A DNA stretch of 64,000 bases from Albugo candida (GCA_040437565.1 JBDOQK010000001.1:186001-250000), one strand, 5' to 3'. Positions 1,624-60,400 are shown, numbered from the stretch's first letter. Program-made: numbers and translations. Notes: a model not told the origin generated them from the sequence alone.

Positions 1624-4600
1624 CTAAGTTTCAGGACATAGAACCGACGGGAACAACATTCCGATACGCGATTGTAAATGAGCTGCCAGATCATTATCAC
1701 CACGCTCTTGTGCGAGCTCCAACACGTTCTCATACACAGACAACGCTTCTTTTGTCTGTCGCCAATTCCAACGCTGAGGACCTCCATCAATGTTCTTTGG
1801 ACGGATCAATACATTGGTCATTGCTGTATCGCCTTCCAATTGACTCGCATTCTCGTCTGTGGACTCTACTATTTCGATATTGGACTTTTCAAATAGATCC
1901 AGCAATTTCAGCCCACGTTCCAGGTCCTTGTTCGCGTGTATACTTCGTGCCAACTGACATGTGTCATACACATTGATTTTGAAATCGTTCTGCTCAAACC
2001 ATTGCGCGATGGTATCGGCTTTTTCTGCATCTTGGGCTTGTAAAGCGAGATTCCACACACGTACGACCGGCATGTATTTGATTTCCAATTTGAGCTCTGT
2101 CAGTTCCTGCAAGGCAGCAAAAGCCTCATCCAATTCTTTTGCTGCTGCCAGCTTTAGGATGTGCCAATAATAACATTGGGCCAAAAGTTTGATTTGACGC
2201 TGAGTCACCTCGCCTTTTTTGTCTTTGAGTTTGGACATATATGTCTCTGGACTGGGAACATACTCCGATTTGATCACTTGAAAAAGCTGTTTGGACATTT
2301 CCACAGTTCCATGAGCCGAGGTTGCGGATAAAAGTCGACAACAAGCATACAGCGGATACACCGATCTTTCACTTTGTGTTTGTTGATAGAGATCAAGAAG
2401 CAGTTTTTGCTGATACTCATCGCCAAAGGTCAAAGTCTCAAGTGCGGAAATGAGCACTTTACTATTCGCTGGAATTCCGCGTTTCTTCATATCGGCGAAA
2501 ATGAGTTCGGAAGCTCGCGGTGTCGTCAGCATTGGACTCTCTTCCTTTTTTGAATCTCGACTTGTGTCGGTATTTCGTCGAAGATGAGATCGCTGGCCCA
2601 ACGCTTTCAGCTCATAATTCAAATCAATATAAAATGTGTTCTTCAAATCAAAGCCAACGTCCACTGCTCGATCCACAGCTGAGGAAAAGTCGTCCAAACG
2701 ATTGTTACTGATCAACATGATGGACAGCGCTCTCAACGCCACTCTGAAACTCGACCAGCTTAATGGGCGCTCACGTTTGACATTTTCCGTTTCCGATGCG
2801 TCCGAGATAGAATGATCTTTCCAATCCTTCCGCACAGCCAGAATCTGCTCATATAACTGTGATAACGCGTCGATATCATTGAATGCAGTAAACGCATCAG
2901 ACGCTACTTTCGTGTCGTAAATGACCGTCTCTGTGTCTTGTAAACGCCGATATATCAGATATTGCGTGTGAGTGGATTCATCGGGGTTTTGTTCGCGATA
3001 GAGTTTAGCGATACTTCTCAGAGCGAATCGATAGCTGGCATTGTAATGATTGCAATAAGTCAAAAAACGAGCGAGTTTCTCATCCTCCTTTGCATGTACC
3101 AACGCCTTCAACACCGTTTTAGCTTTTTGTGGGTCGATGTAAATAGCATTTTCTGAAAAGTGTATCGGGTCTTTAAAGTGCTCCATCGTCGCTCTCTCCA
3201 GAAAAGGCTCTGCGACCTCAGCGGCTTCGGCATACTTTTCCTCACGTATCAGCTTTAGAATTCTGTTGTCCGGCTCTGGAATACTATAAGAGCTTTTTTG
3301 GTTGTTTTGGGCGAGAGCAATAGTCTCCTCGTCAAGCACACTTTCGTTCCGTTGGATGATTTTGTATGTCAAAGAATCGAGGCTCACGGCTTCTTTCATT
3401 TCTTCCAACACACTCATTAGTTCATTTTGACGATTCAGGAACTCTAATGCCAAAAGGATACTGTTGTACGCGTTCGTATTGAGTTTGATGTCGAAATGTT
3501 TCCGATTTTCCAAAATTTTTGCCGCTTGTTCCGTGCAATTGTTATTGATACAAACTTGAAGTAAACTTCGCAACGTGCCGCTGTGTAAACTTTTGCGGGA
3601 TTTTGTGTAAAAGTCAAACGCTAATTGAGGTTCGCCAATGATACCCAAACTGGTAATGACTCGATCAAACACATTCTGGTACCACCATCCTTTTTCGGGG
3701 TCGATAGCGTTCAAGGTAGCAATGACGCGATCCTTATTTCCAGCTTTCGCATGAGTCATCATGATGATGGAATGTAATTCATGAGAGATCTGTACTCGGT
3801 TTTCGTCCATTTTGTTGAGAATCTCATCGGCTTTATCAAATTCTCCTTGATAAAGGTACCCTGCCACACCAAAACGGTATATCAGTTCCGGAATGGATGG
3901 GTTTTCACTCGTTGTATAGTATTGAAGCCCGCTTTCATACGCTTTGACCAATGCATTCCCATCACCTATCCGATTGTAAATACGNNNNNNNNNNNNNNNN
4001 NNNNNNNNNNNNNNNNNNNNNNNNNNNNNNNNNNNNNNNNNNNNNNNNNNNNNNNNNNNNNNNNNNNNNNNNNNNNNNNNNNNNTTTTTCGGGGTCGATA
4101 GCGTTCAAGGTAGCAATGACGCGATCCTTATTTCCAGCTTTCGCATGAGTCATCATGATGATGGAATGTAATTCATGAGAGATCTGTACTCGGTTTTCGT
4201 CCATTTTGTTGAGAATCTCATCGGCTTTATCAAATTCTCCTTGATAAAGGTACCCTGCCACACCAAAACGGTATATCAGTTCCGGAATGGATGGGTTTTC
4301 ACTCGTTGTATAGTATTGAAGCCCGCTTTCATACGCTTTGACCAATGCATTCCCATCACCTATCCGATTGTAAATACGAAACATAAGTCCGTATGTCTCA
4401 AAAGTGATTTCTCGTGGTGCAAACTTTTGCAGATATTTGAATACTTTTTTGAGGAAAGGTGTGTCGTAATTGCGATTCGCACGTGCGATGATCTCGTCGA
4501 GTTTTGCCGCATTTTCAGGATTGTTCGGTTCCTCTACCAGTTGATTTCGGATACTTTTCCATTCCAACTTGAGATTCGTAAAGTCCTGATTGTCGGAAGT

Positions 4601-4932: not shown

Positions 4933-7564
4933 ATGAAGGTCGTCGCACTTGTCAGTGGCGGCAAAGACAGTTGTTTTGCAATGATGGAATGCGTCAAGTA
5001 CGGGCATGAAATAATTGGTCTTGCTCATCTGTTTCCACAAGAAAATGGGTCGAAAAGCACAGCGGAGATCGATTCATTTATGTTTCAATCGGTCGGCTCT
5101 AATTTGGTGGAAAGCATTGCATCGTGCATGGACGTACCTCTTTGGACCGCAGCAATTGCTGGAAAACCGAATACAACCGATCTGATGTACAATACAGCAG
5201 TTGATGGCGACGAAGTCGAGGATATGTATCAGTTGCTTTTGCAAGTCAAGGTACTTTTCCAGAATTGGTGGCTGAATTGTTTTGACCAAGATTGTGCAGA
5301 AAGAGGTTCCTGATTTGGAAGGTATATGCTCCGGAGCCATATTGTCTTCGTACCAACGTAATCGCGTCGAGAATGTGTGCGTTCATGACGCAAAATTTTA
5401 ATGTTTATGTGGACCACATTTCCAATTAATTGCAATATATTGCTGAATAGCTGTCATCGTCTACAGCTAACTTCATTGACGTATCTTTGGCAACAAGATC
5501 AGCAAGAGCTTCTTGAAAGGATGATTCAAAACCAGGTCCATGCAATTATTATCAAAGTGGCTGCCATTGGACTCGACCCAACACGACATCTCGGCAAATC
5601 TCTGCAGGAAATTCAACCAGAACTCTTGCGTTTGGTATGAATACTTACTGCCTATATTTGACGATTCTAAAAAACTGATAGAAAGAAAAGTATCAACTGA
5701 ATGTCTGTGGAGAAGGCGGTGAATATGAAACGCTTACACTTGACTGTCCATTGTTCAGAAAACGAATCGTCATGTAGGGTGCCGAACTTTCCCGTCTAGA
5801 AATTGACTGAGATTATGCGTGTCTTACTCCAGTAATTCCTCAAGAATTGTGATGCATTCAGACGATTTCTGCGCACCAGTTGCCTACCTTGTAATTGAAG
5901 AAAGCTCTTTGGAGGATAAATATTTGCTAAATCCGCTTCTAAAGCCCCCAATCAGCTCCAATGACCCAAAATCGCCCGACCAGATCCAAGATATCCGGCA
6001 ACTCGAGCCCGCACATTCAGACGACATTACTGCAGCCACCACATTCCGTGATCAGATTCATGTACGAGGTCTCGTATCACGTCTACCCATATCGTCGATC
6101 CAAGAGGACTTGAGCGATATTTTCAATCAATTGCGAGGTAAGAAATAGTTTGATCCCACTCGGATCACTTCTTTCCTTGTTGTAGATATATTGCAAGAGC
6201 GACAAGCTTGCCTCCAGGACATTTGTTTCATCCATTTGTACCTTCAAAATATGAATACGTTTGCAGCTGTAAACCACGAGTATTCGAATCACATTTTTAC
6301 TTGGCAACCTCCGTCCCGAAGTTGTGTGGAATGCAAAGATTTGACAGTGAAAGTCCTTTTGGACTGCTTTGCTGTANNNNNNNNNNNNNNNNNNNNNNNN
6401 NNNNNNNNNNNNNNNNNNNNNNNNNNNNNNNNNNNNNNNNNNNNNNNNNNNNNNNNNNNNNNNNNNNNNNNNNNNNTGAATACGTTTGCAGCTGTAAACC
6501 ACGAGTATTCGAATCACATTTTTACTTGGCAACCTCCGTCCCGAAGTTGTGTGGAATGCAAAGATTTGACAGTGAAAGTCCTTTTGGACTGCTTTGCTGT
6601 ACGTGGGAGTGGAGCTGCTCGCATCGATCCGACTCAGTCTGTGGTACAAGTCCTTCATGTAAGAAGTATCTCGGCTTGGGCTCCGTCCTGCATCGGGCCT
6701 TATAGTCAAGCCACTACGGTGCATCGATCGCTCATCTTATTAGCTGGTCAGATTCCTTTGAATCCGGCAACGATGCAGCTGATAGGTGGAAATTATCAAG
6801 AGCAAAGTCGACAATGCATTCAGAATGCAAATGCCGTCTTACGAGCTCTAGATTCAAATGTGAAAAATGTAATTTCTGCAATTGTGTATGTGGTACCGAA
6901 TCTACAAAACGATTCAGACTATGTACCAACATTCCCCCCATTGCAAGGAAATGTGTTGCAATGTGAGCTCAGGAGCGAACATTCAGATTTTCAAACACCG
7001 GTTTTATTGATTTATGTGAGCAAATTACCACGCGAGAGTTTGGTTGAAGTGGAGCTGACAGCACTCACTCGCACCGCATTTAATACCCTTTGTCCAAATA
7101 CTTTGCAATTGGAGGAAAAGTGCAATCCGTACACGTTTTGGTATCAGATTGTAACAATTTCTCGTGCTGTTTGCCTGATACTTGCGGCCGTCAAGTGCAC
7201 CGAACGAGTTGCAAAGGATATAGATTATGTGGTTTCATCATTGATCGAAAAGATCGATGATGCGATATTGCAAGCGCAATTGTTTTGGAATCAAGTACTC
7301 CACCTTCGCATATTCTACCAAAGACATAATACTATTGATCAGACAAAACTCGTCTCAGGTAGGCGATCTCATTCATTCATTGATGGCATTGACTTTTGTT
7401 CAATAGCGCTACGTATAAGCTGCGAGAAGAAAGGGCTTACGGTACCGGCGATCTCTCTCATTCCTGTTAGTGGGATTCAAAACAAAGCATTCCTAGCGAT
7501 ACAAGTGACAGCTTTGGATATAGACATATTAGATACGAAAATGTGGCTAATGGACCGAGTATAG
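4933..7564 (+). CDS. DPH6: Diphthine-ammonia ligase with C-terminal RidA/YjgF-like domains; multi-exon
   Basis: MKVVALVSGGKDS (PP-loop), DSFMFQSVG, GAILSSYQRNRVENV, CGEGGEYETLTLDCPLF, WAPSCIGPYSQA, AGQIPLNP. First intron 5251-5299; more short GT-AG introns follow. In-frame 225-nt gap artefact around 6377. Confidence 0.9.
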
Positions 7565-8394: not shown

Positions 8395-9856
8395 ATGTGC
8401 AAAATGCTCCGAAAACTCTGCAGTCCAAAGTTCTCGACGTGCGCCGCGAATGCGACTGTATCACAGGCAGTCCATCGCTTTCCCTCTTATGTAATCAATG
8501 CGCCAGCAACGGAAGTAACAACACTGCCAAGTGGACTTCGTGTTGCGTCTGAAGGCTCTCATGGAGAGACAGCTACTGTCGGAGTTTGGATAGGAGCAGG
8601 CTCGCGATACGAAACAGAGAAAAATAATGGTGCAGCACATTTTTTGGAGCATATGGCTTTTAAAGGGACGTGTAGACGCACACAGAAACAGCTCGAAATG
8701 GAGATTGAAAATATGGGTGGCCATCTGAATGCATACACAAGTCGAGAGCAGACAGTGTATTATGCTAAAGTGTTCAAGAAAGATATTCCACGTGCGTTAG
8801 ATATACTTAGTGACATATTACAAAATTCGCGACTCGATGAGATCGCTATTGAACGAGAGAGAGATGTTATCCTTCGGGAAATGGAAGAAGTCAACAAACA
8901 ACATGAGGAGGTGGTTTTTGATCGTCTTCATGAAACAGCGTACATGGGAAATGGGCTGGGTCGAACCATTTTGGGCCCGCAGGAAAATGTATGTATGATT
9001 TCTGTACCGTAAACATGCTTTTGATCCTCTATTGTAGATTCGTTCCTTGAGCAAACAAGATCTGAGAGATTACATCGCCACCCATTACACAGCAGATAGA
9101 ATGGTGATCGCTGGCGCTGGAGCAATTGATCATCAAGAGTTGGTTCAATTGGCTGAAAAATCTTTTGGCAATCTTCCGACGACTCCTAGCAATTCTCAAG
9201 CCATCAAACTTGACCCTGCTCGATTCATTGGATCGGATATCCGTGTTCCAAATGATTCCGAGTCCTTGGTTCACGTGGCTTTGGCATTTGAGGGATTCAG
9301 CTGGACCAGCGAGTATGCGTTCCCTTTACTTATTATGCAGACTCTTATCGGCAGCTGGGATCGCACTGATGGCGCAGGACTCAACTCTTCATCCAAACTT
9401 GGTCAAGCGGTTGCCGAACACGAACTCGTTCATTCCTACAGCGCATTCAACACGTGCTATCATGATACTGGTCTTTTTGGTGTGTATGCTGTGGCCGATC
9501 CACATAAATTAAATGATTTCATGTGGTACACGCTAGAATCACTGGTACGATTAGTACACAAAACGACGGAAGAAGAAGTGGAACGAGCCAAAATTCAATT
9601 AAAGGCCAGTATGTTGATGCAATTGGATGGCTCATCACCAATATGCGAGGATATTGGGCGGCAATTGCTGACGTACGGTCGACGTCTTACCCCAGCTGAG
9701 ATCTTCATGCGGATCGATACGGTTGATGCAACATCGGTTCGTCGAACTGCTACACAAGTGATCAATGACAAAGCACACGCGCTAGCTGCTGTTGGTCCCG
9801 TGCAAGAGTTACCAGATTATGCGTTTATACGAAAGAGATCTTATTGGGTAAAATAA
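8395..9856 (+). CDS. PMPCB: Mitochondrial processing peptidase beta subunit (M16); exons 8395-8988 and 9038-9856
   Basis: HFLEH zinc motif, [27 protein letters not shown], presequence-like N-terminus. 49-nt GT-AG intron 8989-9037 restores the frame. Confidence 0.93.
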
Positions 9857-10154
9857 ATACAAATGTCACAAATTGAGAGGAGCGTATTCTACAGAGATTT
9901 ATAGAATCGAATATTTTGATATGAAAAACAGGCAGCGACCCTATTCCTTCCAATTTCAGCCAATACGACACCTCCGTTTAATTCTGTCACTCAATACCAT
10001 TACTTTATAGCGATAATGCGTAAAAATCGGTCAATCGAACCCTCTTTTTCAAGAGTTCAGCATTCAATGACACAAAATACGAGCGAGTTTGATCGTAGTC
10101 TCTAAAAAAAAAGTCGAGCGACCAGAGTCTGTGGCTTTTGAAACAGTTTGTACC

Positions 10155-13100
10155 ATGAATATATCGAGAGGGAATGATTTTGATACCCCAAAGTACGTCA
10201 CACCGTCTCCTGCACGTCCATTTGTGGAATTACCTCCCGATACGTATGTATCCGGCCAATTCTCATCTTCGAATGTTATGTCGACATCGGCGAATGCGCC
10301 ATTACAGGATTTTTGTGTCGGTGTAGAATACGATAGCTTGAATGCTGTCATTGAATCCATCCAGCGCTCTAATTTCATACAATTTCAAGGTCAGCGTCGA
10401 TTACAAGTACAAAGTCTTGATTCTGATACAACNNNNNNNNNNNNNNNNNNNNNNNNNNNNNNNNNNNNNNNNNNNNNNNNNNNNNNNNNNNNNNNNNNNN
10501 NNNNNNNNNNNNNNNNNNNNNNNNNNNNNNNNGGCCAATTCTCATCTTCGAATGTTATGTCGACATCGGCGAATGCGCCATTACAGGATTTTTGTGTCGG
10601 TGTAGAATACGATAGCTTGAATGCTGTCATTGAATCCATCCAGCGCTCTAATTTCATACAATTTCAAGGTCAGCGTCGATTACAAGTACAAAGTCTTGAT
10701 TCTGATACAACCCCATCTGCCCGTTTGGTCTGTGAATATCATCCTTGGTGTAACTTTTACATTCTCTTAAATCAAATTCCCACTACACCACGGTACCGAA
10801 TATGCGAATTAGACCTTCGTCATCATCCGCAATGTGATAGCTTGTTACACGATCCGTTTACATCAATTTCAACTGAATGTGCTCCGAATGTATCCTTTGC
10901 GTCACGAATGGTGACGCCAGCGCATTTCCACGCTGCTACCAATGAAAATGAGAAAGAGTCAGAGGCTAATTACAAAAGTACAATTGCGGAAGGGTCCGTT
11001 GCTCGACAGCAGCCACAAGAACAACAGCACATCTCACCGGTTGGTACGACGCTCATTCGCGAGGATCGAAGCGATTCCGAGCACACATTTGTGAATTCAT
11101 TAGAGACCCATGCTGAAGCCTTTAAGAACTCGCTTGCGAGTCCATATCCGTCACAAGCGACCAACTCCAATGTGATGTACGCAGAAGGAAGGGAGATGCA
11201 GGAACAAGCTCATAATCAAAAGTTTAATAAGGCACGACCATTAATTGTGCAGGAAACCCCATCAGGCTCTTTTGGAAATCCGCGAGCGGGATTTGGCGCA
11301 CTTGCAAATTATATGGCAACACCTGTTGCACCACGAACTCCACTTACGGTCATTCGACAAGGTGATAATCTCAGTTCGTACACATTGAGTACCGATATGC
11401 GTTGGGATACCGCGAAAGAGGCAGCTCGAGCCATTTACACTTTTGCATCTCAGGTCCAAAATAAACGAACAAGAATGGATAAGAAATCGAGTGGTGGACG
11501 TAATAAGAAATATGTCTGTGTATGTGCTCATTGTGATTGGTGTGTGCGTTTACTTAAAGTTCTGAAGACGGAACAATGGAAAATCTCATCCATGCAGCTG
11601 CAACATTCGGTCGACTGTGAGGCTGTGTTTCCCAATGCAAATGCCTCTGCGTATTCCTCACAGCTCGCTGGACAAACACCGTCCAGTATTCCGCTAACGC
11701 CTGGAGTTGGAGCTAGTCAAAGTCACGGTATCTCTGCGATCACCACCAGTGATAATCCATACTCCAAATCATTCGGTACGCTCTTGCAAGGTCTTTTGGA
11801 TCGGTACCCGGATAGCGCTGTTGCGATCAAAAATAACGATCAGCAAAACACATTAGCGAATATGTGTATCGTGCCAAGTTGGGCTCGAAATGCGCTACCT
11901 TTCCTCCAGAATGTATATGGCGTGGAAGTGATCGCGTGTAGCGCACCTAAAAGTTTGGAGAAATGCTCAAGTCGATTTGATGGTCAATACTTTATCGCAC
12001 TCATTGGGAAAGATGGAAATTTAGAACCAAGACTTATCGCTTTTGGGTTTGTGGAGTCAATGTCTGAAGAAAATATGCATTGGTTTACGCAAGAATTGGA
12101 ATCTGCTGGATTTCTCATGAATGGGGCTACGGTGTTTGTCGGATACGGCGATCAAAGTATGGCCAGTGGGCTCCAACGCATCTTCCCCCAAGTGAGGCTT
12201 CAATACTGCACTGATAGTTTACTGGCAGCGATAGAAAGCAGCATTATCCCATCTTTACCTTCCGAAATGACAATCACTCTTCGAGAGCAAATTATTGGAG
12301 CACGTACTGCCAGTAATGTGGCGATTTTCCAAGAGTACTTGAACAATATCGCTTCCATCAGCAGCAGCGCAGCCTCCTTCTTACAGCAATTGAATCCAGC
12401 TCATTGGGCGTTATTCGCGAATTTGGGTATCCGTACATACAATTGGACTTCCAACTGTTTCTCCGAGTACCTTCAGCATCATTCTATCAATCATCAGAGC
12501 GCAGCAATGATGGAGAAGCCTTCGTTCCTAACACGTGAAATGCTTCCATTATTGGACACTTATGAGATGATCAAACGCTTTATGTCGGACGCATGCGATC
12601 GCCATATTGGACGCTTTCCAGTTCTGCAGCAGATACAGCAAGAGCAGAACGAATTTATGAACACTGTGGCCATGAAAGTGCCTGAAGACCGCATGAATCC
12701 TCACATTATGGCTCGATCTTTACAGCTTACGCCGAATGGAACCTTATTGGTCGAAAATGAAATATTACAATCAACAGGTTATCAAATTCAAAGTGTCGAC
12801 ACGGATGTTGCGTTTGTGTATTCGCAAAGCGAACACGAGAGGCCAAATCGCGTTAATTTAAGGGATCTCACCTGTTCCTGTGCGTACACATTTCAATTGG
12901 GATTACCATGTCGACATATTGTGGCTACTGCACGTGCAATGCGTGTGATGCCGTCCATTCGTCAAGCCGTAGAGCATATTTACACTATGGGATCGTATCG
13001 TTCCGCGTGTCTGTCTCAAAATCACTCTGTGACGGACAATTCCGTACGTAATACGAATAAATTGGACGATCGAGATATATGCGATCGCGAGGATTCCGAC

Positions 13101-13337
13101 TCGGAAACGGATAGTCTCGAGAATGCGGGAAACAGCAAATGCAGTGAGAAGAAAAAGACGAGAAAGAGAACTCTAGCAGACACTGGAGGTACGGGTGAAT
13201 TGGAGGGAACACGCTCAACTAAGGCCTTTAAAAGTGAAGAATATGATGTGGTAGAAGATCAGTGTCAATTCGGCGAATGTGATGAAGTGGTACATAATGA
13301 GACTCAGCAGGAAGACAGCGACAGTGTGCGTCTTTGA
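10155..13337 (+). CDS. Mutator/MuDR transposase-derived protein: two MuDR-type zinc-finger modules, degenerate MULE core, SWIM finger (~967 aa without the 279-nt gap artefact)
   Basis: VCEYHPWCNF...HHPQC and VCVCAHCDWC...HSVDC modules; GKDGNLEPRLIAFGFVESMSEENMHWF MULE block; SWIM CSCAYTFQLGLPCRH. Uninterrupted ORF, no TIRs seen. Confidence 0.8.
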   Translation: MNISRGNDFDTPKYVTPSPARPFVELPPDTYVSGQFSSSNVMSTSANAPLQDFCVGVEYDSLNAVIESIQRSNFIQFQGQRRLQVQSLDSDTXXXXXXXXXXXXXXXXXXXXXXXXXXXXXXXXXXGQFSSSNVMSTSANAPLQDFCVGVEYDSLNAVIESIQRSNFIQFQGQRRLQVQSLDSDTTPSARLVCEYHPWCNFYILLNQIPTTPRYRICELDLRHHPQCDSLLHDPFTSISTECAPNVSFASRMVTPAHFHAATNENEKESEANYKSTIAEGSVARQQPQEQQHISPVGTTLIREDRSDSEHTFVNSLETHAEAFKNSLASPYPSQATNSNVMYAEGREMQEQAHNQKFNKARPLIVQETPSGSFGNPRAGFGALANYMATPVAPRTPLTVIRQGDNLSSYTLSTDMRWDTAKEAARAIYTFASQVQNKRTRMDKKSSGGRNKKYVCVCAHCDWCVRLLKVLKTEQWKISSMQLQHSVDCEAVFPNANASAYSSQLAGQTPSSIPLTPGVGASQSHGISAITTSDNPYSKSFGTLLQGLLDRYPDSAVAIKNNDQQNTLANMCIVPSWARNALPFLQNVYGVEVIACSAPKSLEKCSSRFDGQYFIALIGKDGNLEPRLIAFGFVESMSEENMHWFTQELESAGFLMNGATVFVGYGDQSMASGLQRIFPQVRLQYCTDSLLAAIESSIIPSLPSEMTITLREQIIGARTASNVAIFQEYLNNIASISSSAASFLQQLNPAHWALFANLGIRTYNWTSNCFSEYLQHHSINHQSAAMMEKPSFLTREMLPLLDTYEMIKRFMSDACDRHIGRFPVLQQIQQEQNEFMNTVAMKVPEDRMNPHIMARSLQLTPNGTLLVENEILQSTGYQIQSVDTDVAFVYSQSEHERPNRVNLRDLTCSCAYTFQLGLPCRHIVATARAMRVMPSIRQAVEHIYTMGSYRSACLSQNHSVTDNSVRNTNKLDDRDICDREDSDSETDSLENAGNSKCSEKKKTRKRTLADTGGTGELEGTRSTKAFKSEEYDVVEDQCQFGECDEVVHNETQQEDSDSVRL

Positions 13338-13479
13338 GCGCTTCTTTGCATTCGCAATTGGATATCAAATTCGCATTTTTGTCTCTTTATTTATGTGAAA
13401 TTGCAAATAAGTCTGTTCCATGTTGTGTTTATTCAGACAATAGCTTTGTCACATCGATATTGTCTATCCGCATCAGAAT

Positions 13480-15171
13480 ATGTATACTGAGTCTGGAATC
13501 AGACTGCTGGATGCGACCTATGATTCCTCTTTGGACGACGAAGAGACAACGACATTCACTCCATTGCATACGACAGGTATCCGTTCAGTAACATCACACT
13601 TTCTACAACGAGAGCATAAACTATTACATCAGCGCAACAACCGTAGCTCAAATGTAAAATTCCATCCGTACAAGCCATCCCATCTCTCCTCTGAATCAAA
13701 TCAATCTCCCCATCCTCTTTTCACTCCCTGCTCTTCTGAATCGCTTGTGCTTGAACATCCCCCACAAACCACTATACACTCGAAGTATACACCCCAAACA
13801 CTGCTTCACACACTTCGCGGTCATGAAAACAGCGTCTACAGCATCCAGTGGAATGTCCGCTTTCCGCACTTGCTTCTATCTGCATCTATGGACCGCACTG
13901 TCCGCGTTTGGTCCATTCCTGCACTCAATCAGCGTACTCAGGACACAGGCTTTCTATCTCGCGTTCATACAGGCGGCGTTCGAGTCGCAAAATGGACTTT
14001 ATCCGGCACACATTACGTCTCAGGAGGTTATGACAAACAGCTCGTCTACGTGGACGTCAATGCGGAATCCGTTGTGACATGTATCAGCAGTACGCAACCA
14101 ATTCGATCGATAGCCATTCATCCGGAGAATCAGAATATTATACTTACTGGTCANNNNNNNNNNNNNNNNNNNNNNNNNNNNNNNNNNNNNNNNNNNNNNN
14201 NNNNNNNNNNNNNNNNNNNNNNNNNNNNNNNNNNNNNNNNNNNNNNNNNNNNNCCGCACTTGCTTCTATCTGCATCTATGGACCGCACTGTCCGCGTTTG
14301 GTCCATTCCTGCACTCAATCAGCGTACTCAGGACACAGGCTTTCTATCTCGCGTTCATACAGGCGGCGTTCGAGTCGCAAAATGGACTTTATCCGGCACA
14401 CATTACGTCTCAGGAGGTTATGACAAACAGCTCGTCTACGTGGACGTCAATGCGGAATCCGTTGTGACATGTATCAGCAGTACGCAACCAATTCGATCGA
14501 TAGCCATTCATCCGGAGAATCAGAATATTATACTTACTGGTCAACCGAATCAGATCGTCGCTTACGATTTGCGCTCAAAAGCAACACACGCGCCTTCGAC
14601 TTTTCGGAAGAATTTTGAGCAGGTACACGATCTCCTGTTTCTTCCGCCTGTGCCAAACGCAGCATTTGGTGGCTACGATCTCCGCTTTGTATCGAGCGCT
14701 TCGACCAAAGGCAGAAATGTCAGCAATGAGACATTGCTCGTGTGGGACTTTCGATCATCTGCGGTACTGTATGATCGACTGGAATCCGATGGATTTGAAT
14801 TTCCTTCGCTACGAGCACATCCGTCCAATACATTCTTTGTGGCCCAATCGAGTCTCCATCAAGCGATTTTATTCTCCTGTAAAGCCCCATACAAACGATT
14901 CAAGCACAAAACATTCGGAAAGCGTCAAAGCTGTCATCTCGTAGAAGGGTATTCCATTCATTCAAGCTTTCATCCAGATGGAAATTTCTACGCTTCTGGC
15001 GATGCACTCGGTCGTATTTTCTACTATCATGCGCGCTCGGGCGCTTTTGTATGCAAAACTCGCGTGGGATCGAATTGTGCGTGTCTTTGCGTTGAATACC
15101 ATCCATCACAGAAGAAGCCTTCTTTACTAGCCGCTGCGACGTACAATGGCTCCATCCATTTATTTCAATAA
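13480..15171 (+). CDS. WD40-repeat protein (WDR25-like, ~433 aa after removing the 390-nt gap artefact)
   Basis: LRGHENSVYSIQW...LLLSASMDRTVRVW, SGGYDK, HLVEGYS..SFHPDG, CVEYHP repeats. Confidence 0.85.
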   Translation: MYTESGIRLLDATYDSSLDDEETTTFTPLHTTGIRSVTSHFLQREHKLLHQRNNRSSNVKFHPYKPSHLSSESNQSPHPLFTPCSSESLVLEHPPQTTIHSKYTPQTLLHTLRGHENSVYSIQWNVRFPHLLLSASMDRTVRVWSIPALNQRTQDTGFLSRVHTGGVRVAKWTLSGTHYVSGGYDKQLVYVDVNAESVVTCISSTQPIRSIAIHPENQNIILTGXXXXXXXXXXXXXXXXXXXXXXXXXXXXXXXXXXPHLLLSASMDRTVRVWSIPALNQRTQDTGFLSRVHTGGVRVAKWTLSGTHYVSGGYDKQLVYVDVNAESVVTCISSTQPIRSIAIHPENQNIILTGQPNQIVAYDLRSKATHAPSTFRKNFEQVHDLLFLPPVPNAAFGGYDLRFVSSASTKGRNVSNETLLVWDFRSSAVLYDRLESDGFEFPSLRAHPSNTFFVAQSSLHQAILFSCKAPYKRFKHKTFGKRQSCHLVEGYSIHSSFHPDGNFYASGDALGRIFYYHARSGAFVCKTRVGSNCACLCVEYHPSQKKPSLLAAATYNGSIHLFQ

Positions 15172-19892: not shown

Positions 19893-21077
19893 CTAAATAA
19901 TTGGCACCGCCCACGCTCCATGACTCTCCATGTTGTAGATATTTGTCCCACGCTCGGCGTAAAAGAATCCACTCTCGCCCCAGTTCATTCCATCAGAGTT
20001 GCGTACAATCCAATACTTCAACCCTTCGTCCGTTGTACCCCATCCGACCAAACTGACAACGTGTGTGGTCCCTGGATACTTTTTGGAATCACGTAAGATG
20101 TATCCTCCTCTGTAATTCACGTATTCTTTCGAGTGAGAATACATACTTGCAACAATCGGTCCTCGATGGTAAATTTCATTCATCGCTTCAATCTCAAATT
20201 CTTCCGGTGTTGTTGCGTTCAACGTACCAAACTCTGAAATATGATACTTCCTTGCGTTCTTCAAAACGCGACAAACACCGTCTGATGAACACGTTCGACA
20301 TTGTGTTTCCTCACAGCTTTCTCCGACAGCGAACCAAGACGGATGGGATGCGATGTATGGATTGCAAGTGACGTCAACAATTCCATTTTCGTATATCCAT
20401 TTGTGCGCATATCGTGGATCTCCTCCACTGCAAGATCCAAATGATCGCATTCCGCAATCCAGTAACACTTGCGGTGATAGCACAACCTCTGGTCCAGCGT
20501 GGCCATACTTCTTGTAGTGCGCAATCCGAATCCGGTCCGATAAAGAGCTGACAGTGGCAAACGCCCAACATGAGCCACACGGTCGCGGAAGCATCTGATT
20601 CATGACGGCAGTCGTCAGACTGAGCCCGGTTCCGCTGTAATTTCTCCAGTCCCAATTCTTTGGAAAGTCATTGATTGACCGTGGACCCGGAAGCGACTCC
20701 AATCGTACTTCTGGGTCGGGTCCACCTAAGAACCATTTTACTTTTCCAGACGGTCTCTCTTTGTTACGGACGAGACCCGCATCCGTACACGAAGCCAAAA
20801 TATCGTCTTCCTGGCGCACCCGATGAAGAAAATCTCCTTTTGTGAAATCGACTGTTGGATCACGTTCAACCGATATAAAACACGAAGCGACGAGACATCC
20901 CACAACCATGGAAACGAAAATCGTGCTCAGTAATTGGACGCGCTGAGTGTCCATTGTCAAATATCTCAGATTGGTGCGTCGCTTGGTTGTGGAATCTGTG
21001 AGGCTTGGTCGCTGGTGCAGCAGCGGAAGTTGCGTTCCAAGTTCACTACGTCTTGATCCAGTTGCACTTGAAGCCAT
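19893..21077 (-). CDS. Papain-family (C1A) cysteine protease, cathepsin X/Z-like, with N-terminal membrane anchor
   Basis: PKNWDWRN, NQMLPRPCGSCWAF (catalytic Cys), HVVSLVGWG (His), YWIVRNS (Asn); hydrophobic segment LLSTIFVSMVVGCLVASCFISV. Confidence 0.9.
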   Translation of the reverse strand: MASSATGSRRSELGTQLPLLHQRPSLTDSTTKRRTNLRYLTMDTQRVQLLSTIFVSMVVGCLVASCFISVERDPTVDFTKGDFLHRVRQEDDILASCTDAGLVRNKERPSGKVKWFLGGPDPEVRLESLPGPRSINDFPKNWDWRNYSGTGLSLTTAVMNQMLPRPCGSCWAFATVSSLSDRIRIAHYKKYGHAGPEVVLSPQVLLDCGMRSFGSCSGGDPRYAHKWIYENGIVDVTCNPYIASHPSWFAVGESCEETQCRTCSSDGVCRVLKNARKYHISEFGTLNATTPEEFEIEAMNEIYHRGPIVASMYSHSKEYVNYRGGYILRDSKKYPGTTHVVSLVGWGTTDEGLKYWIVRNSDGMNWGESGFFYAERGTNIYNMESHGAWAVPII

Positions 21078-23617
21078 TCTGTGAGTTTCGTTGCAAAAAA
21101 TTTACTGCTATTGTCTCTCCAAAAAAGAATTCGACAAGAGCGGAGAGTAGACGTAGACACGTGCATCTTAGCACAAACGCTTGTATTTGGTTGGTTTGAT
21201 TTTTGCCGACATGATCCAATCTGCTGTCGAGATTTTTGCACGCGTTTGTACCGATCGCCCATAATTGGATAAAATCAAATAGCCTTCTTCCAAAGGGTAA
21301 TTTATAGATTTCCTCAAACACCGAGGACTTCCAGAGGACAAAATTGCCAGAATCTTAAATAACCGTTAAAAAACATAAGGTAATGCGACGCTTCTCTCCC
21401 ACAAGCGACAAATCGAGAGGCTTTATTGTCCCACACCGACGATCTTTCGAAAGATCGAATTGCCTTCTCTCAGAATGGATAATGTGAAAATTCACAGCTG
21501 TTTGAACTCGAGCAAGGTGTTTATGATTCGGGGCTGATTGTCGGCTGATGAGGGGGGCTAAGTACGCAGTGTAGCGATTTCGCGATAACTTTGTTTGCTG
21601 GCGTCAACCAATGCTGTGAAGGAAGTATCAAACGTGAGAAGCTGAATCATATTTGTTGTCTGGGAGAACTGATAAGTTCGAGTAGCGCCGCGATGTCAAT
21701 TTAGAATGTAAAAAAGGTGATAAATTACATAAAAGGCCGTCGTCAGTCGAACATATGTTAAGTGCGCTCGCAGCGACCGCTATGATTAAGTCTAGGCTTA
21801 TTTATCAGAAAAAAAGATGTTAGAAAGTAGAAAACTACTGCTATCATATCTTGATNNNNNNNNNNNNNNNNNNNNNNNNNNNNNNNNNNNNNNNNNNNNN
21901 NNNNNNNNNNNNNNNNNNNNNNNNNNNNNNNNNNNNNNNNNNNNNNNNNNNNNNNTTATCAGAAAAAAAGATGTTAGAAAGTAGAAAACTACTGCTATCA
22001 TATCTTGATTGTCTTTTCGGACAACTCGGTGTCCACCCAACGTAGCCGCTAACACCGACCAAATGCTCAAATTTAAGCTGGTCTAACGCGAACAATAAAC
22101 TTCAGTTGAGATCTAATTATCCGATCTACGTCCTGCATCAAAGGTTCATTGAATCCACAAACGTTCCAGAAGCTTTAATACAGGATGCATTTTGACCAAC
22201 TGATAATATCTCACACAGCTGCTTATCAGTACTCTATTAGCCAGCTACGGGTCCTTGATGCAGGAAACAGGCTGCACTACTTTCTTGCATAGGAAAAACA
22301 GAATTTCAGATCAATACGACTGTTTTCTTATGACTGATCAGCATGTACAGGTGGCCTTGAGTTGATAACATTCTCTGTCGAAAACGCACGAGTTTATACA
22401 TTTTCATTGTCGTGAGACCCCATTAGGGCGACAATTACGATTGACTATGCCTCGCAACAACGTTGTTATCTTGTTGAGATTTTAGACCAAAAAGGTGCAT
22501 GGAAATGGAAGAAGAATAATCCATCCGCTCAGAGGCTCCTTCAAAAGCGAGCTGTATCCAAAGAGGCTCTGATGCACAGGATATGATAGTCTTCGGGATA
22601 TGATACATGCGCAACATGTCGCAAACTTCGATGTAATCTCCTGAGTCAATATATTTCTACCGTGTTGCTCCTTCATTTCCCCTTTTGTCTAATCTCTACT
22701 TTGTGCGCTACAGGTCATTGCGTACTTGGCAAGCACTACGATTTTCTATCGACCCAAGAAAGAATGGTACTAGTTGAGGCATACGATGAGACCCTAGATA
22801 ATTCATCCATCGTGATTCATGAGGTAGAAGGCTATTGCAAATTAACAAAGAATTTCCGTTGCAGTATTAAACACGTCTCTGTAGCGCGACATGCTGAAGC
22901 AACTACTGTCCGCGTAAAATAGTAAGTAATGTACGACTGTTACTTCCGTTTTGCATATTGCTAATGAGCGGAGCTAGCAGAAGCCCTGGGTCGATTCTTG
23001 GTCTCCATTTAATAGTACGAATACGTTAGCATCACATATTTCTGGATCGTGAGTGACACGATAACGATGACCTGTTTCGTGTTTTTATGCTGAAAGCTTG
23101 ATCCATGTTATTATTGCCGTCCTGAACGATCAAATATACCCTGTTTCAACGTGCTGGGTACCACGACTGCACTTTAGATACCACAAACATAAAAAAAAAA
23201 ACGTTTCTGTGACACAACATGTTCAAATTGCTTGATATTTTTGTGAAGAATCTTCGAATGCAAGGGGTTTCGATCATTTAGATGAAGGAATTATAATTCA
23301 GTCTCACTGATCTGCTAGAACTTTCTCTTCTCATCGCCTAGCTTGATATGTACCGTTTCTATCCCTGGCATACCATCCACGTCGTGATTATGCCCCTAGA
23401 TCGGATTCCCGCTGTGTCTCAAACTCAGCGAGAATACATCGCTTTTCAACAGTGCTGCGTTAAAAGGAACCTGGATTCCACCTTTCGAATGAGGTAGGTA
23501 TAAACATTCAGACCTGATCAGTTGAACGTGTGCTGAATCTCGCTCATACTTCCGACTCAAAACAAATCGATTGAGCATCGAGTGCCAGCGTCGAAGTAGA
23601 TGTTGCGGAATGCTAAA

Positions 23618-57400: not shown

Positions 57401-60400
57401 CAAGAGAATCATCCTATCGCGTTTCGCTCCAAAAAGTTTGGAATTCACGAAAAGGGGTGGCCGATACACGATCAAGAATTACTTGCGATTAAGACGGCTC
57501 TCAAAAATGGCGCCATTATCTCCATGGTCTATCGTCTGATGTCTATACACACAACAATGCGTGCCATTAGATGCTTCATCATCCAAACATCACGCCAATA
57601 ATAGCGCGTATGCTGACCTTTTTCTCCCAGTTTGATTTTACGCTGCAACACACCAAAGATACTTCCAAAGTTATCGCTGTCGCGTCCGGGCGTCGTCAGT
57701 CCAACAACCGGGATGCACCGCAGTCAAGTAACTCAAATTCATGACATCGGACCATTATGCGCTCGCCGGACGTCAATCTTAGACGTCGTGGTCTGCACGT
57801 GGCGGTTCTATACTTTCTTCCACGACACGATAAGGACCTTCTCCTTGATTTGCGGGAGTTTTCGGGGGTGGATAGAGTGCACCAGGTGGTTGTACCTCAA
57901 CTGCGCCAGCGACAAATTCACGATCAATTCCATCACATCGATTTCATTATGTCAAGCATCCAACTCTCGTCTATCACCAAGGCGCTTATGAGCGGCTACA
58001 GCAAGGACCGCGAGTACAAGGAGGCGTTGAACTCGAATCACGACAAGAAGGTTCTGCGGAATCAATTACTGTATGTCAAGACGAACTACACAGTCAAACG
58101 GCTGCAAGTTCCGGCAGACGATAGACTCACCGCCGCCATTATCCGTTAACATCAAGATGAAAACACTGCAGCACATCCTGGTGTCCGTTGCACATAACTT
58201 AAGGTGGCGCAACGGTACTACTGGCCAAACTTGGAAAAAGACGTGCGAGAGTACGCATAAAGCTGCAGTACAGCTCAAGAAAAATGGCAATACCACAATC
58301 CTAGTTCCTAAAGAGTGCTGGGAAGTAGTTTCGATGGACTTTGTAACCGGCCTACGGGTGTTGAGAGGATTCGATGATATCTGGGCAGTGGTCGATAAAC
58401 TGTCGAACCGCCCAAGATATGCTGCTACAAACACGAAAACCGATGCTCCAAACGTCGCAAAACTATTTGTTGACGTCTTCATGCGTCATCACGGATTAGC
58501 GAAGGTCATCATCACTGATCGAGATCCAAAGTTCACTTTTAACTTTTGGAAGTCGCTGATGGCCGCTATGGAAATCAAGCTTTCAATGACAACAGCACAC
58601 CACGCGCAGACTGACAGCAAAACTGAGCGACAAACTTTAAACTTGAAGGATGCACTACGCTGCATGGTGTCGTATCATGGCGACGACTGTTCAACTCATC
58701 TCGGGACTATCGAGTTTGCTCAGGCAACTCCGGTGAGCAAGTCAACACAGCTATCACCTGTTGAGATTGATACAGGGCGACAGGTGTGCAATACTATTTC
58801 CGGAGGTTTCAGTGGCACCGGAAAAATGCTTCCTGTAGCCGGGTACAAAAAAACAATTTGCAGACAAGAGGCAAAAGATCATTAAACTTGCGCAACCCAA
58901 CTTGTTCAAGGCTCAAAGAAAAGCAAAAGGACTACTACGACAAGAAGCGCAAAAATGTGACATTTAAAGCTGGCGACATGGTTATGCTCGATGCCAGACA
59001 TTTCAAGCGACGCCAACCACAAACTGGACACGAAATGACAAAGATGAAGCTGTTGGCGAAGAAGATCCGACCATTGTAGATCAAAGAGATGATCAACAAC
59101 AACGTGTCCAAGCTGGTGCTGTCACGGCAAGTTGCGCTCCAGTTTAAATATCGAATTGTTAAGCCATTTCGTCCCGATCCCGATGAATATTAGCAGTCGC
59201 CCGATCGCAAAAGCAGTGCCGGCAATTCTCGAGGACGAAACCGGTAGCGAGTTGTACATTGTAGAAGTGCTGGTCAAGAAACGTGTCTACAACAAACGAC
59301 CTGATGTCTCGTTGTGGGGCATGGACTTCCAGAGAAGGAGTGTACCAGGGAAAAGNNNNNNNNNNNNNNNNNNNNNNNNNNNNNNNNNNNNNNNNNNNNN
59401 NNNNNNNNNNNNNNNNNNNNNNNNNNNNNNNNNNNNNNNNNNNNNNNNNNNNNNNGTACAGCTCAAGAAAAATGGCAATACCACAATCCTAGTTCCTAAA
59501 GAGTGCTGGGAAGTAGTTTCGATGGACTTTGTAACCGGCCTACGGGTGTTGAGAGGATTCGATGATATCTGGGCAGTGGTCGATAAACTGTCGAACCGCC
59601 CAAGATATGCTGCTACAAACACGAAAACCGATGCTCCAAACGTCGCAAAACTATTTGTTGACGTCTTCATGCGTCATCACGGATTAGCGAAGGTCATCAT
59701 CACTGATCGAGATCCAAAGTTCACTTTTAACTTTTGGAAGTCGCTGATGGCCGCTATGGAAATCAAGCTTTCAATGACAACAGCACACCACGCGCAGACT
59801 GACAGCAAAACTGAGCGACAAACTTTAAACTTGAAGGATGCACTACGCTGCATGGTGTCGTATCATGGCGACGACTGTTCAACTCATCTCGGGACTATCG
59901 AGTTTGCTCAGGCAACTCCGGTGAGCAAGTCAACACAGCTATCACCTGTTGAGATTGATACAGGGCGACAGGTGTGCAATACTATTTCCGGAGGTTTCAG
60001 TGGCACCGGAAAAATGCTTCCTGTAGCCGGGTACAAAAAAACAATTTGCAGACAAGAGGCAAAAGATCATTAAACTTGCGCAACCCAACTTGTTCAAGGC
60101 TCAAAGAAAAGCAAAAGGACTACTACGACAAGAAGCGCAAAAATGTGACATTTAAAGCTGGCGACATGGTTATGCTCGATGCCAGACATTTCAAGCGACG
60201 CCAACCACAAACTGGACACGAAATGACAAAGATGAAGCTGTTGGCGAAGAAGATCCGACCATTGTAGATCAAAGAGATGATCAACAACAACGTGTCCAAG
60301 CTGGTGCTGTCACGGCAAGTTGCGCTCCAGTTTAAATATCGAATTGTTAAGCCATTTCGTCCCGATCCCGATGAATATTAGCAGTCGCCCGATCGCAAAA

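Follow-up and report, generated by a model that had tools for sequence, protein, structure and literature searches.

We conclude that an ORF in a stretch of Albugo candida DNA (the window, 64 kb in all) is probably a host gene derived from a MULE transposase captured in an early oomycete, with a DNA-binding regulator rather than a transposon as its probable product. In the gene product, two homologous zinc fingers of the WRKY-GCM1 type, along with what is left of a degenerate third, precede a MULE/IS256-like RNase H core, and the SWIM finger is intact. Exaptation from a MULE transposase, as put forward in the original prediction, is supported by the retained fingers and SWIM, a DDE triad that is not intact, membership in a single clade, the lack of TIRs and an excess of synonymous changes. 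The suggestion that the exaptation was specific to this lineage has to be abandoned: the family is oomycete-wide, and because of this the domestication appears ancient.

The locus is organized as follows.

8395..9856: MPP-beta gene, 5' neighbour of the ORF
10155..13337, plus strand: whole ORF as printed, 1060 codons including a stop-free run of N (the real gene has 967 codons)
10433..10711, no strand: assembly artefact within the ORF, made up of 100 N (10433..10532) and a 179-bp duplicated contig end
13480..15171: WDR25-like WD40 gene, 3' neighbour of the ORF

The first ATG of the ORF is at 10155, the stop-to-stop frame is 10071..13337, and the flanking spacers measure 298 bp upstream and 142 bp downstream. 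The printed 1060 codons are inflated because of the 100-N scaffold gap and the duplicated contig end, positions 10533..10711 being an exact repeat of 10254..10432 (179 bp). Gap and duplicate together insert 279 nt without shifting the frame, which makes 93 false codons (1060 - 93 = 967). Duplicated flanks of the same sort are found at nine of the 13 gaps in the window, and protein P0002, which is 98% identical, spans the artefact site with one copy of the duplicated segment. With the false codons removed, the predicted stop-free ORF of about 967 codons between the MPP-beta and WD40 genes was confirmed. Its codon use correlates with that of the neighbouring genes (r 0.83; GC3 0.41).

In a second strain (run X17) the frame is likewise open, with nine synonymous changes, six non-synonymous changes and one in-frame 3-bp deletion. 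From these 15 changes in a single strain, pN/pS comes to about 0.19 (binomial p 0.0015), and within the species purifying selection acts on the gene. In one low-depth contig (4.9) of run X12, a TTTT run past position 10754 is longer by one T, which, if real, would be a frameshift. Of two runs presumed to be RNA, X4 covers the gene and spacer with a single 8206-nt contig and X19 yielded four short, identical contigs, of which three fall within the ORF and one within the WD40 gene; contigs of this kind cannot show transcription. The inflation of the printed ORF would suit a neutral relic or an annotation artefact devoid of function. We nevertheless regard such an origin as very improbable, since the 967-codon frame is open in two strains and, at 77% identity, in A. 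laibachii, zinc ligands and motifs are invariant across oomycete orders, and pN/pS is low.

Inspection of the flanks and of the rest of the window revealed no sign of an element still flanked by its ends or present in further copies. Eleven inverted pairs of at least 14 nt were recovered, none of which has one arm in each flanking spacer; the claim that the ORF lacks TIRs is thus upheld, and a TSD therefore cannot be defined. A tblastn search with four family members (E 0.01) matched only the ORF, so there is no second family copy in the 64-kb window. One decayed MULE relic is located near 43367 on the minus strand (ISVDGTF...VISDRD, with stops); this relic was not matched in the same search and is not close kin of the gene. 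All later MULEs had been described as full of stops, which is true of this relic, but it was the only one located. No MULE was matched by Pfam in 19 long stop-to-stop frames taken from the window beyond 19 kb. The same scan matched a papain-family protease, a bromodomain and, weakly, rve integrase (two matches).

The N-terminal half of the protein carries the finger modules (residue numbers of domains, ligands and triad positions are those of P0001 throughout).

10590..10847, plus strand: finger module 1, residues 20-105, a helix and a four-stranded sheet
10977..11237, plus strand: degenerate middle-finger remnant, residues 149-235, without Cys ligands and predicted to be disordered
11385..11627, plus strand: finger module 3, residues 285-365, with the invariant pattern GGxNKKYxC...C...WKIS.M.L.H...C

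Two tandem MuDR-type modules had been claimed; both are present, and they are homologues of one another (hhalign 98.8%, E 6e-17). The ligands of module 1 are C67, C73, H97/H98 and C101, spaced C-x5-C-x23-H-x3-C; those of module 3 are C329, C334, H358 and C362, spaced C-x4-C-x23-H-x3-C. In the AF2 model each module forms a helix and four strands (pLDDT 71-89 in the case of module 1), so that by predicted fold both have the four-stranded sheet and C..C..H..H/C zinc ligands of the WRKY-GCM1 type. Module 3 superposes on the AFT2-DNA structure 4lmg_B with VIA Z 8.2 and rmsd 2.8 over 76 aligned residues (Foldseek probability 1.00). The comparison of module 1 with the RRS1 WRKY domain, which is weak by itself, gave VIA Z 5.8 and rmsd 3.4 over 67 aligned residues. 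Pythium, Phytophthora, Peronospora and Saprolegniales have an intact middle finger; the HMM match to its Albugo remnant is circular, Albugo rows having been part of the training alignment. Counted by lineage, fingers number one in the nearest transposase-like relatives, two in Albugo and Saprolegniales, and three from Pythium to Peronospora.

No part of the protein is better conserved than module 3, the finger next to the core. In the two Albugo species, A. candida and A. laibachii, 80 of its 81 residues are identical (99%), compared with 84% in the core and 43% in the C-terminal tail; between Albugo and Pythium, finger 3 is 52% identical (42/81) and the core 24%. A family alignment shows that zinc ligands and motifs are invariant and common to several oomycete orders. 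Because finger 3 outpaces both core and tail in identity, we infer that DNA binding is likely the conserved function.

The core and C-terminal features are listed below; the triad and CxxH assignments are from the column table of the core alignment.

11733..12767, plus strand: MULE/IS256-like RNase H core with a helical insertion, residues 401-745
11925..11927, plus strand: triad position D1, E465
12141..12143, plus strand: triad position D2, G537
12207..12218, plus strand: CxxH motif, reading C559-T-D-S562
12465..12467, plus strand: triad position E, E645
12849..12932, plus strand: SWIM zinc finger (CxC...CxH), residues 773-800, Pfam SWIM
13023..13334, plus strand: acidic, poorly conserved C-terminal tail with a KKKTRKR basic patch, residues 831-934

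Homology of the core to MULE/IS256 transposases is indicated by sequence and predicted structure together. Pfam MULE scored 23.9 bits on the window protein (E 5.7e-5), which is under the gathering score of 27.6, and it matches 20 of the 24 family members. The RNase H fold, for which structure prediction had been proposed as a check, was recovered: the modelled core matches the ISCth4 transposase (Foldseek E 1.5e-3, probability 1.00; VIA Z 10.9 with 231 residues aligned to 6xgx_B), pLDDT being 70-89 in the domains and only 57 in the model as a whole. When the whole protein was compared with PDB chains by sequence, nothing beyond chance-level DsbA-like rows (E 0.05 or weaker) was obtained. A homodimer model of core plus SWIM (two copies of residues 401-830) had a score of 0.00. 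A profile search retrieved 3464 proteins at E up to 1e-3, DDE-intact MULE-like proteins among them.

The core alignment (L-INS-i) contains 59 proteins, of which 47 are non-family rows. D-D-E together with CxxH is read in 27 of these 47, while the window gene reads E-G-E and CxxS in the same columns; it thus has neither the intact DDE (E465-G537-E645 instead) nor the C/DxxH of an active MULE/Mutator transposase. According to alignment A1, D2 is absent from 22 of 24 family members, and the histidine of CxxH is replaced by serine in all 24. The original prediction held that every catalytic position had been replaced. This is correct for D2 and for the change of CxxH to CxxS, and the triad is indeed broken. 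However, the glutamate counted as lost in TSNCFSE is E645, which falls in the column of the catalytic E when DDE-intact relatives are aligned, and D1, where YGVEVIAC had been read in place of xxxDGT, is E465 in the alignment with the same relatives, a conservative D-to-E change and not an unrelated residue. As aligned, then, the triad is broken, yet less completely than was held. Acidic residues at two of its three positions, E465 and E645, may allow residual metal binding.

Those two residues, the well-predicted RNase H fold and the existence of a second Albugo paralogue (P0004/P0005, copy B) that reads D-D-E in both Albugo species are what a domesticated nuclease or recombinase would call for, that is, a protein that still cuts or joins DNA, alone or with the DDE-retaining paralogue. 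Such an activity seems improbable to us: D2 is a glycine, the neighbouring D540 is Q in A. laibachii, Pythium, Phytophthora and Peronospora have K or H in the D1 column, and the losses of D2 (in 22 of 24 family members) and of the CxxH histidine (in all 24) point the same way.

The SWIM finger was described as intact, and it is: Pfam SWIM scored 21.3 bits against a cut-off of 19.6, the CxCxnCxH signature is present, and C793 and H795 are nearly invariant in the family. An HMM search with DBD_Tnp_Mut, MULE and SWIM had been recommended as a check of the domain assignments; it succeeded for SWIM, stayed below threshold for MULE, and gave no match of Pfam DBD_Tnp_Mut to the window protein. The tail has pLDDT under 50 and shares 43 of 101 residues with A. 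laibachii. Judged from its composition, it is possibly a nuclear-localisation and activation region.

Relatives of the gene were found in every oomycete order sampled. They form 23 clusters, from A. laibachii (77% identity), Saprolegnia, Thraustotheca, Lagenidium, Pythium, Phytophthora, Nothophytophthora and Peronospora; a contig count is available for 20 of them, 19 being on one contig and one on two. Among the 24 family members, Pfam SWIM matches 21; AFT and DBD_Tnp_Mut match weakly, in 16 (best E 0.0036) and six (best E 0.021), respectively. In a phylogenetic tree, the 24 family rows are a single clade (SH-aLRT 100, stem 0.67). Terminal branches from Pythium to Peronospora are 0.008-0.10 long, versus 0.3-1.5 in transposase-like relatives, and within Saprolegniales, Pythium, Phytophthora and Peronospora the branching order agrees with taxonomy. 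The Albugo clade is placed outside Saprolegniales plus Peronosporales (SH-aLRT 92), which is at odds with the accepted species tree; long-branch attraction or old paralogy could account for this. With 23 clusters in one clade, the picture is one of vertical inheritance at apparently low copy number, the discordant position of Albugo notwithstanding. In Nothophytophthora, P. megakarya and Lagenidium, the orthologues of the flanking WD40 and MPP-beta genes carry locus tags far from that of the family member. Look-alike clusters of P0028 and P0039 in Atlas are of the MULE, SWIM, FAR1 and ZSWIM kinds and come from Streptophyta, Oomycota and Bacillariophyta.

These data bear on whether the ORF could be a transposon after all, either autonomous or a recently inactivated non-TIR MULE whose frame is open by chance. 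Core and SWIM are homologous to those of MULEs, and passages of PMC6446971 describe non-TIR MULEs. The broken triad, the restriction of related clusters to one or two contigs each, the short-branched clade that tracks taxonomy, the excess of synonymous changes and the mere 298 and 142 bp that separate the ORF from neighbouring housekeeping genes all argue otherwise, and we give this reading hardly any weight.

Genome defence would be a different use of a domesticated gene, in which a catalytically dead protein competes for, or represses, the ends of related MULEs. The core-adjacent finger is common to the DDE-intact, single-finger proteins P0039, P0040, P0042 and P0044 and could recognise MULE ends, and a decayed MULE does lie in the same window. 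That relic is not close kin of the gene, though (no match in the tblastn search with four family members), and the family is little changed across many genera, where faster divergence would be expected of a protein tracking fast-evolving transposon ends. Defence against MULEs is thus unlikely, if somewhat less so than residual catalysis.

The protein is most likely a sequence-specific DNA-binding factor that acts as a transcriptional or chromatin regulator, by analogy with known MULE derivatives. An early oomycete would have captured a MULE transposase, whose descendant is no longer mobile. The tandem fingers would read DNA, the dead core and SWIM would form a scaffold through which the protein associates with itself or binds partners, and nuclear import and activation would fall to the acidic tail with its basic patch; these roles are proposed because of the analogy with plant FHY3/FAR1 and yeast Aft1/Aft2. 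A bolder scenario can be drawn, which we consider a long shot. The MULE would have been captured before the oomycete orders split, and its finger multiplied up to three times to give a lineage-specific master DNA-binding factor; duplication in Albugo would then have produced copy A (the window gene, E-G-E) and copy B (D-D-E), the pair being not plain transcription factors but a host-controlled system for cutting or rearranging DNA, with a dead targeting and a live catalytic subunit.

FHY3/FAR1 and MUSTANG of plants and Aft1/Aft2 of yeasts arose by domestication of MULE transposases. If a regulator is indeed what the gene encodes, an independent MULE domestication would be common to all sampled oomycetes. 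Important pathogens of crops and fish are found among the oomycetes, whose set of transcription factors has been charted poorly. A DNA-binding protein conserved in oomycetes and confined to them would count as a new regulator. The progression from one to two to three fingers offers a test case for the multiplication of transposase DNA-binding domains after capture, and the DDE-retaining Albugo paralogue a natural comparison of a dead copy with a possibly live one. A search of the open-access literature, at the level of abstracts and main texts, found no report of a MULE-derived oomycete host gene, and a paper on P. infestans transcription-factor specificity (PMC11267843) makes no mention of transposase, WRKY, FLYWCH or Mutator.

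The closest parallel in design is the plant FHY3/FAR1/FRS family, which shares with the window gene an N-terminal WRKY-GCM1-superfamily finger, a MULE core and SWIM; in either case these are host genes that have no TIRs and are conserved from species to species. FHY3 has one finger module, unlike the oomycete family with its two or three in tandem. The FAR1 domain that defines the FHY3/FAR1 family proper (PF03101) was detected in none of the 24 oomycete members at E up to 1, and the oomycete proteins form a clade of their own, confined to oomycetes, to which proteins with a single finger and an intact DDE are nearest. The function of FHY3 has been demonstrated, whereas the window gene is known from sequence and predicted structure. 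FHY3/FAR1/FRS proteins are MULE-derived transcription factors according to the available parts of PMC13306707 and PMC6446971.

Yeast Aft2 is the structural match of finger 3 given above. In Aft1/Aft2 the core was lost and the DNA-binding domain alone was kept, whereas the oomycete gene keeps the entire core and SWIM. Babu et al. 2006 (PMC1702500), in whose available text Phytophthora, oomycetes and stramenopiles do not occur, argued for a transposon-to-transcription-factor origin of Aft1(Rcs1)/Aft2 and of Candida Rbf1. Further independent MULE domestications include MUSTANG of angiosperms (PMC6446971, which, in its available part, treats Phytophthora MULEs as transposons), animal ZSWIM1/3 and the metazoan 'FHY3'-type transcription factors (surveyed in PMC10027918, in the portion available). 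ZSWIM1-3 clusters are among the Atlas look-alikes of P0028. MUSTANG and the metazoan genes belong to other lineages, and their N-terminal domains are unlike those of the window gene.

The best solved structural match of the core (model residues 406-790) is ISCth4 of the IS256 family (PDB 6xgx/6xg8/6xgw), an active bacterial DDE enzyme of 9-14% identity that has neither WRKY-type fingers nor SWIM; compared with it, D2 and the histidine of CxxH are missing from the window gene. Nearest among outside relatives are P0039, P0040, P0042, P0044, P0050 and P0053 (profile E 1e-72 to 1e-79). The DDE-intact MULE-like proteins of this kind (P0039 and others) have finger 3, core and SWIM in the same order as the window protein and read GxDG / CDR / CTRH / NFVE, that is, D-D-E plus CxxH, but they carry a single finger, are 530-650 aa long and sit on long terminal branches (0.4-1.3).

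The window gene (10155..13337, + strand) lies between an MPP-beta gene (8395..9856) and a WDR25-like WD40 gene (13480..15171), whose products share 99-100% identity with A. candida proteins at NCBI. As printed, its ORF has 1060 codons without internal stops and contains two features of the assembly:

10433..10532, scaffold gap inside the ORF, 100 N
10533..10711, exact repeat inside the ORF, a 179-base copy of 10254..10432 on the other side of the gap

Because gap and repeat add 279 bases, the frame being kept by chance, the real gene has 967 codons; the stop-free ORF of about this length in the original prediction was thus recovered once the artefact was removed. In P0002, the 98%-identical counterpart from another assembly, the 179-base stretch is present once only, without interruption. 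Downstream analyses were based on the window gene protein P0001 (window:10533-13334; 934 residues), which is without the first 33 residues only.

Nine of the 13 gaps in the window carry exact duplicated flanks of 54-1298 bp each, and look like overlapping contig ends joined by a spacer:

Gaps with duplicated flanks (100 N each)
3985-4084
6377-6476
10433-10532
14154-14253
21856-21955
30357-30456
31947-32046
49700-49799
59356-59455

Such duplicates also inflate the WD40 gene (563 aa in the window versus 433 aa in NCBI A. candida P0172). The duplicate in the window gene ends at 10711, the same place as a 3-bp indel of another strain, and the assembly break there may have been caused by a heterozygous indel. 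In the MPP-beta search, the sole A. laibachii row, P0315, was 60% identical to the window protein (Phytophthora and Pythium rows, 73-74%); it probably represents a paralogue, the true A. laibachii orthologue having been absorbed into the 90% cluster that contains the A. candida protein. Two minus-strand frames, a papain-family cysteine protease (19896-21101; Peptidase_C1, E 4e-40) and a bromodomain (27543-28028; E 1e-17), look like ordinary host genes.

No inverted-repeat pair was found bridging the two spacers of the window gene (298 and 142 bp), in agreement with the reported absence of TIRs, and tblastn with four family members (oomycete relatives of the window gene) revealed nothing else in the 64-kb window. 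A decayed MULE at ca. 40400-43500 (- strand; ISVDGTF...VISDRD near 43367) contains stop codons, as had been claimed for all later MULEs, and is the one such relic located. It showed no similarity to the window gene in tblastn with family members, its longer frames had no Pfam match at E 0.01, and by these comparisons it belongs to another lineage. Weak rve integrase-core matches, both under cut-off, at 58031-58882 (+; E 4e-5) and 59093-60070 (+; E 6e-5) probably stem from the integrase of an LTR retroelement, duplicated or decayed and spanning an assembly gap whose flank is duplicated over 1088 bp.

Among the three Pfam domains that the original prediction named for an HMM search, SWIM passed in P0001 (residues 773-800; 21.3 bits, cut-off 19.6), confirming the intact finger, MULE scored under its cut-off of 27.6 (residues 486-560; 23.9 bits, E 5.7e-5), and DBD_Tnp_Mut gave no match. 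An AlphaFold2 model of P0001, built on A1, the alignment of 24 family members, had a mean pLDDT of only 57, with well-defined domains:

Regions of P0001 in the AlphaFold2 model
25-106, finger module 1, one helix and four strands, pLDDT 71-89
103-282, linker, disordered
285-360, finger module 3, one helix and four strands, pLDDT 71-89
394-830, core, pLDDT mostly 70-87
829-934, C-terminal tail, disordered

Structural alignments of the modelled domains
Core, 406-790, with IS256-family transposase ISCth4 (6xgx_B): Z 10.9, 231 aligned, rmsd 5.0
Core with Hermes transposase: Z 6.9, 229 aligned, rmsd 6.0
Core with P element transposase: Z 6.4, 219 aligned, rmsd 5.3
Finger 3, 284-364, with DNA-bound AFT2 (4lmg_B): Z 8.2, 76 aligned, rmsd 2.8
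Finger 1, 21-103, with RRS1 WRKY domain (5w3x_D): Z 5.8, 67 aligned, rmsd 3.4; weak taken alone

Structure prediction of the RNase H core, proposed at the outset, thus yielded ISCth4 as the best match, also in Foldseek (E 1.5e-3, probability 1.00).

Profile-profile comparison matched module 1 to module 3 (98.8%, E 6e-17), and the family's middle module to module 3 (96.3%, E 1.5e-9). By this measure the modules are true internal duplicates, and the two N-terminal fingers seen initially were upheld. Their ligand spacings (C-x5-C-x23-H-x3-C and C-x4-C-x23-H-x3-C) fit the WRKY-GCM1 superfamily. Model and profiles together show a predicted protein with two structured, mutually homologous WRKY-GCM1-type fingers and an intact SWIM. 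Albugo retains modules 1 and 3, the middle one having decayed (cysteines gone, disordered in the model); Pythium to Peronospora have three modules, and Saprolegniales modules 2 and 3, although their gene model may be truncated. In transposase-like relatives the finger is single, bar one exception with two. This variation between lineages suggests multiplication of the DNA-binding domain once the transposase had been captured.

A search of 1.84 billion representatives with the A1 profile returned 3464 proteins at E <=1e-3 and 103 at E <=1e-30. From 171 proteins, 59 were picked by hand, non-exhaustively (12 family members, 27 representatives of at least 500 residues from P0035-P0066, and 20 from further down the list), and their cores aligned with L-INS-i. 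Three columns read D-D-E in 27 of the 47 non-family rows, nearly all with the CxxH motif, and are therefore the catalytic ones.

Residues at the catalytic columns (D1; D2; E)
Albugo copy A (window gene, P0002, A. laibachii): E; G; E
Albugo copy B (P0004, P0005): D; D; E
Saprolegniales (P0006, P0007): D; P; S
Pythium and Lagenidium group (P0008-P0013): K; S or A; E
Phytophthora, Nothophytophthora, Peronospora (P0014-P0023): H; S or A; E
P0024 (truncated form): Q; S; N

The window gene has E465, G537 and E645 in these columns, and C559..S562 at the CxxH position. D2 is missing in 22 of the 24 A1 members, being retained in the two copy-B sequences only, and the CxxH histidine is replaced by S in all 24. 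D540, three residues past G537, does not qualify as a conserved D2 substitute, since A. laibachii has Q there. The claim of a dead DDE core therefore stands for D2 and CxxH; D1 underwent a conservative D to E change, and the glutamate said to be lost is present. The alignment shows a MULE core that is, to judge from these residues, catalytically compromised. Copy B (P0004, A. laibachii AlNc14C41G3498; P0005), located outside the window and 38-43% identical to the window gene, has D-D-E in both Albugo species, yet CxxS, and is the most intriguing loose end.

A word-indexed search revealed 23 related clusters, among them A. laibachii AlNc14C18G1895 (77% identity) and the second Albugo paralogue (AlNc14C41G3498, 41%; a Logan protein, 43%). 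Sequences from Thraustotheca, Saprolegnia, Lagenidium, Pythium, Phytophthora, Nothophytophthora and Peronospora were 24-29% identical over ca. 82% of the query. Contig counts, given for 20 clusters, were one in 19 cases and two in the other. A maximum likelihood tree of 51 rows (24 family, 21 near relatives, 6 distant MULE-like outgroup) was built by quick search under LG+C20 (PMSF), with SH-aLRT support only; fragments below 500 residues, near-identical P0002 and truncated P0020-P0024 were kept out. The family formed a single clade (support 100%) on a long stem (0.67), and terminal branches from Pythium to Peronospora were 0.008-0.10, versus 0.3-1.5 in transposase-like relatives. Within Saprolegniales, and likewise among Pythium, Lagenidium, Phytophthora and Peronospora, branching matched taxonomy. 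The Albugo A/B duplication predates the A. candida/A. laibachii split. The Albugo clade, together with four proteins from the representative library (P0028, P0029, P0030 and P0032), branched as the sister group of Saprolegniales and Peronosporales combined (support 92), which is not the accepted species order; long-branch attraction or old paralogy may account for this. These four proteins share the insertion of the Albugo clade after strand 1; their D1 residue is E, and their D2 residue G, A or N. As read from tree and contig counts, the sequences show vertical, low-copy inheritance.

Contigs of four public runs were compared over 10533..13700. In X17 (DNA, another strain), one contig spans the whole stretch; it differs by 15 substitutions, all within the ORF, and lacks 3 bp, in frame, at 10711. 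Nine changes were synonymous (612 sites) and six non-synonymous (2190 sites), giving, for this one strain, pN/pS of ca. 0.19 (one-sided binomial p 0.0015); three of the six replacements fall in the C-terminal tail. By these substitutions, the window gene is under purifying selection within the species. Pointing the other way, run X12 has, in a contig of 429 nt and depth 4.9, an extra T in the TTTT run after 10754; single low-depth contigs may be erroneous. Codon use correlates with that of the neighbours (r 0.83; GC3 0.41 versus 0.39-0.47).

Identity by region (A. candida versus A. laibachii; Albugo versus Pythium)
Finger 1 module: 70/84; 16/86
Linker: 134/177; 13/152
Finger 3 module: 80/81; 42/81
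Core: 289/345; 70/289
SWIM region: 75/85; 25/85
C-terminal tail: 43/101; 8/57

These identities point to the finger adjoining the core, finger 3, as the part under strongest constraint. The window gene is real and most probably an ancient, oomycete-wide domesticated MULE transposase. A search of the openly accessible literature, supplementary tables aside, found no published description of the oomycete family; in the sections seen, Babu et al. 2006 (PMC1702500) leaves oomycetes unmentioned, and Dupeyron et al. 2019 (PMC6446971) gives Phytophthora MULEs as transposons only.

The fingers would bind specific DNA. In finger 3, an invariant GGxNKKYxC strand directly precedes the first zinc-ligand cysteine, the place at which WRKY-type domains contact DNA. 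The dead core and SWIM may serve as a scaffold, the acidic tail may provide activation, and the KKKTRKR patch nuclear import. Although the window gene is not a member of the FHY3/FAR1 family (the Pfam FAR1 domain occurs in 0 of 24 family members), its protein would work in a manner like that of FHY3/FAR1.
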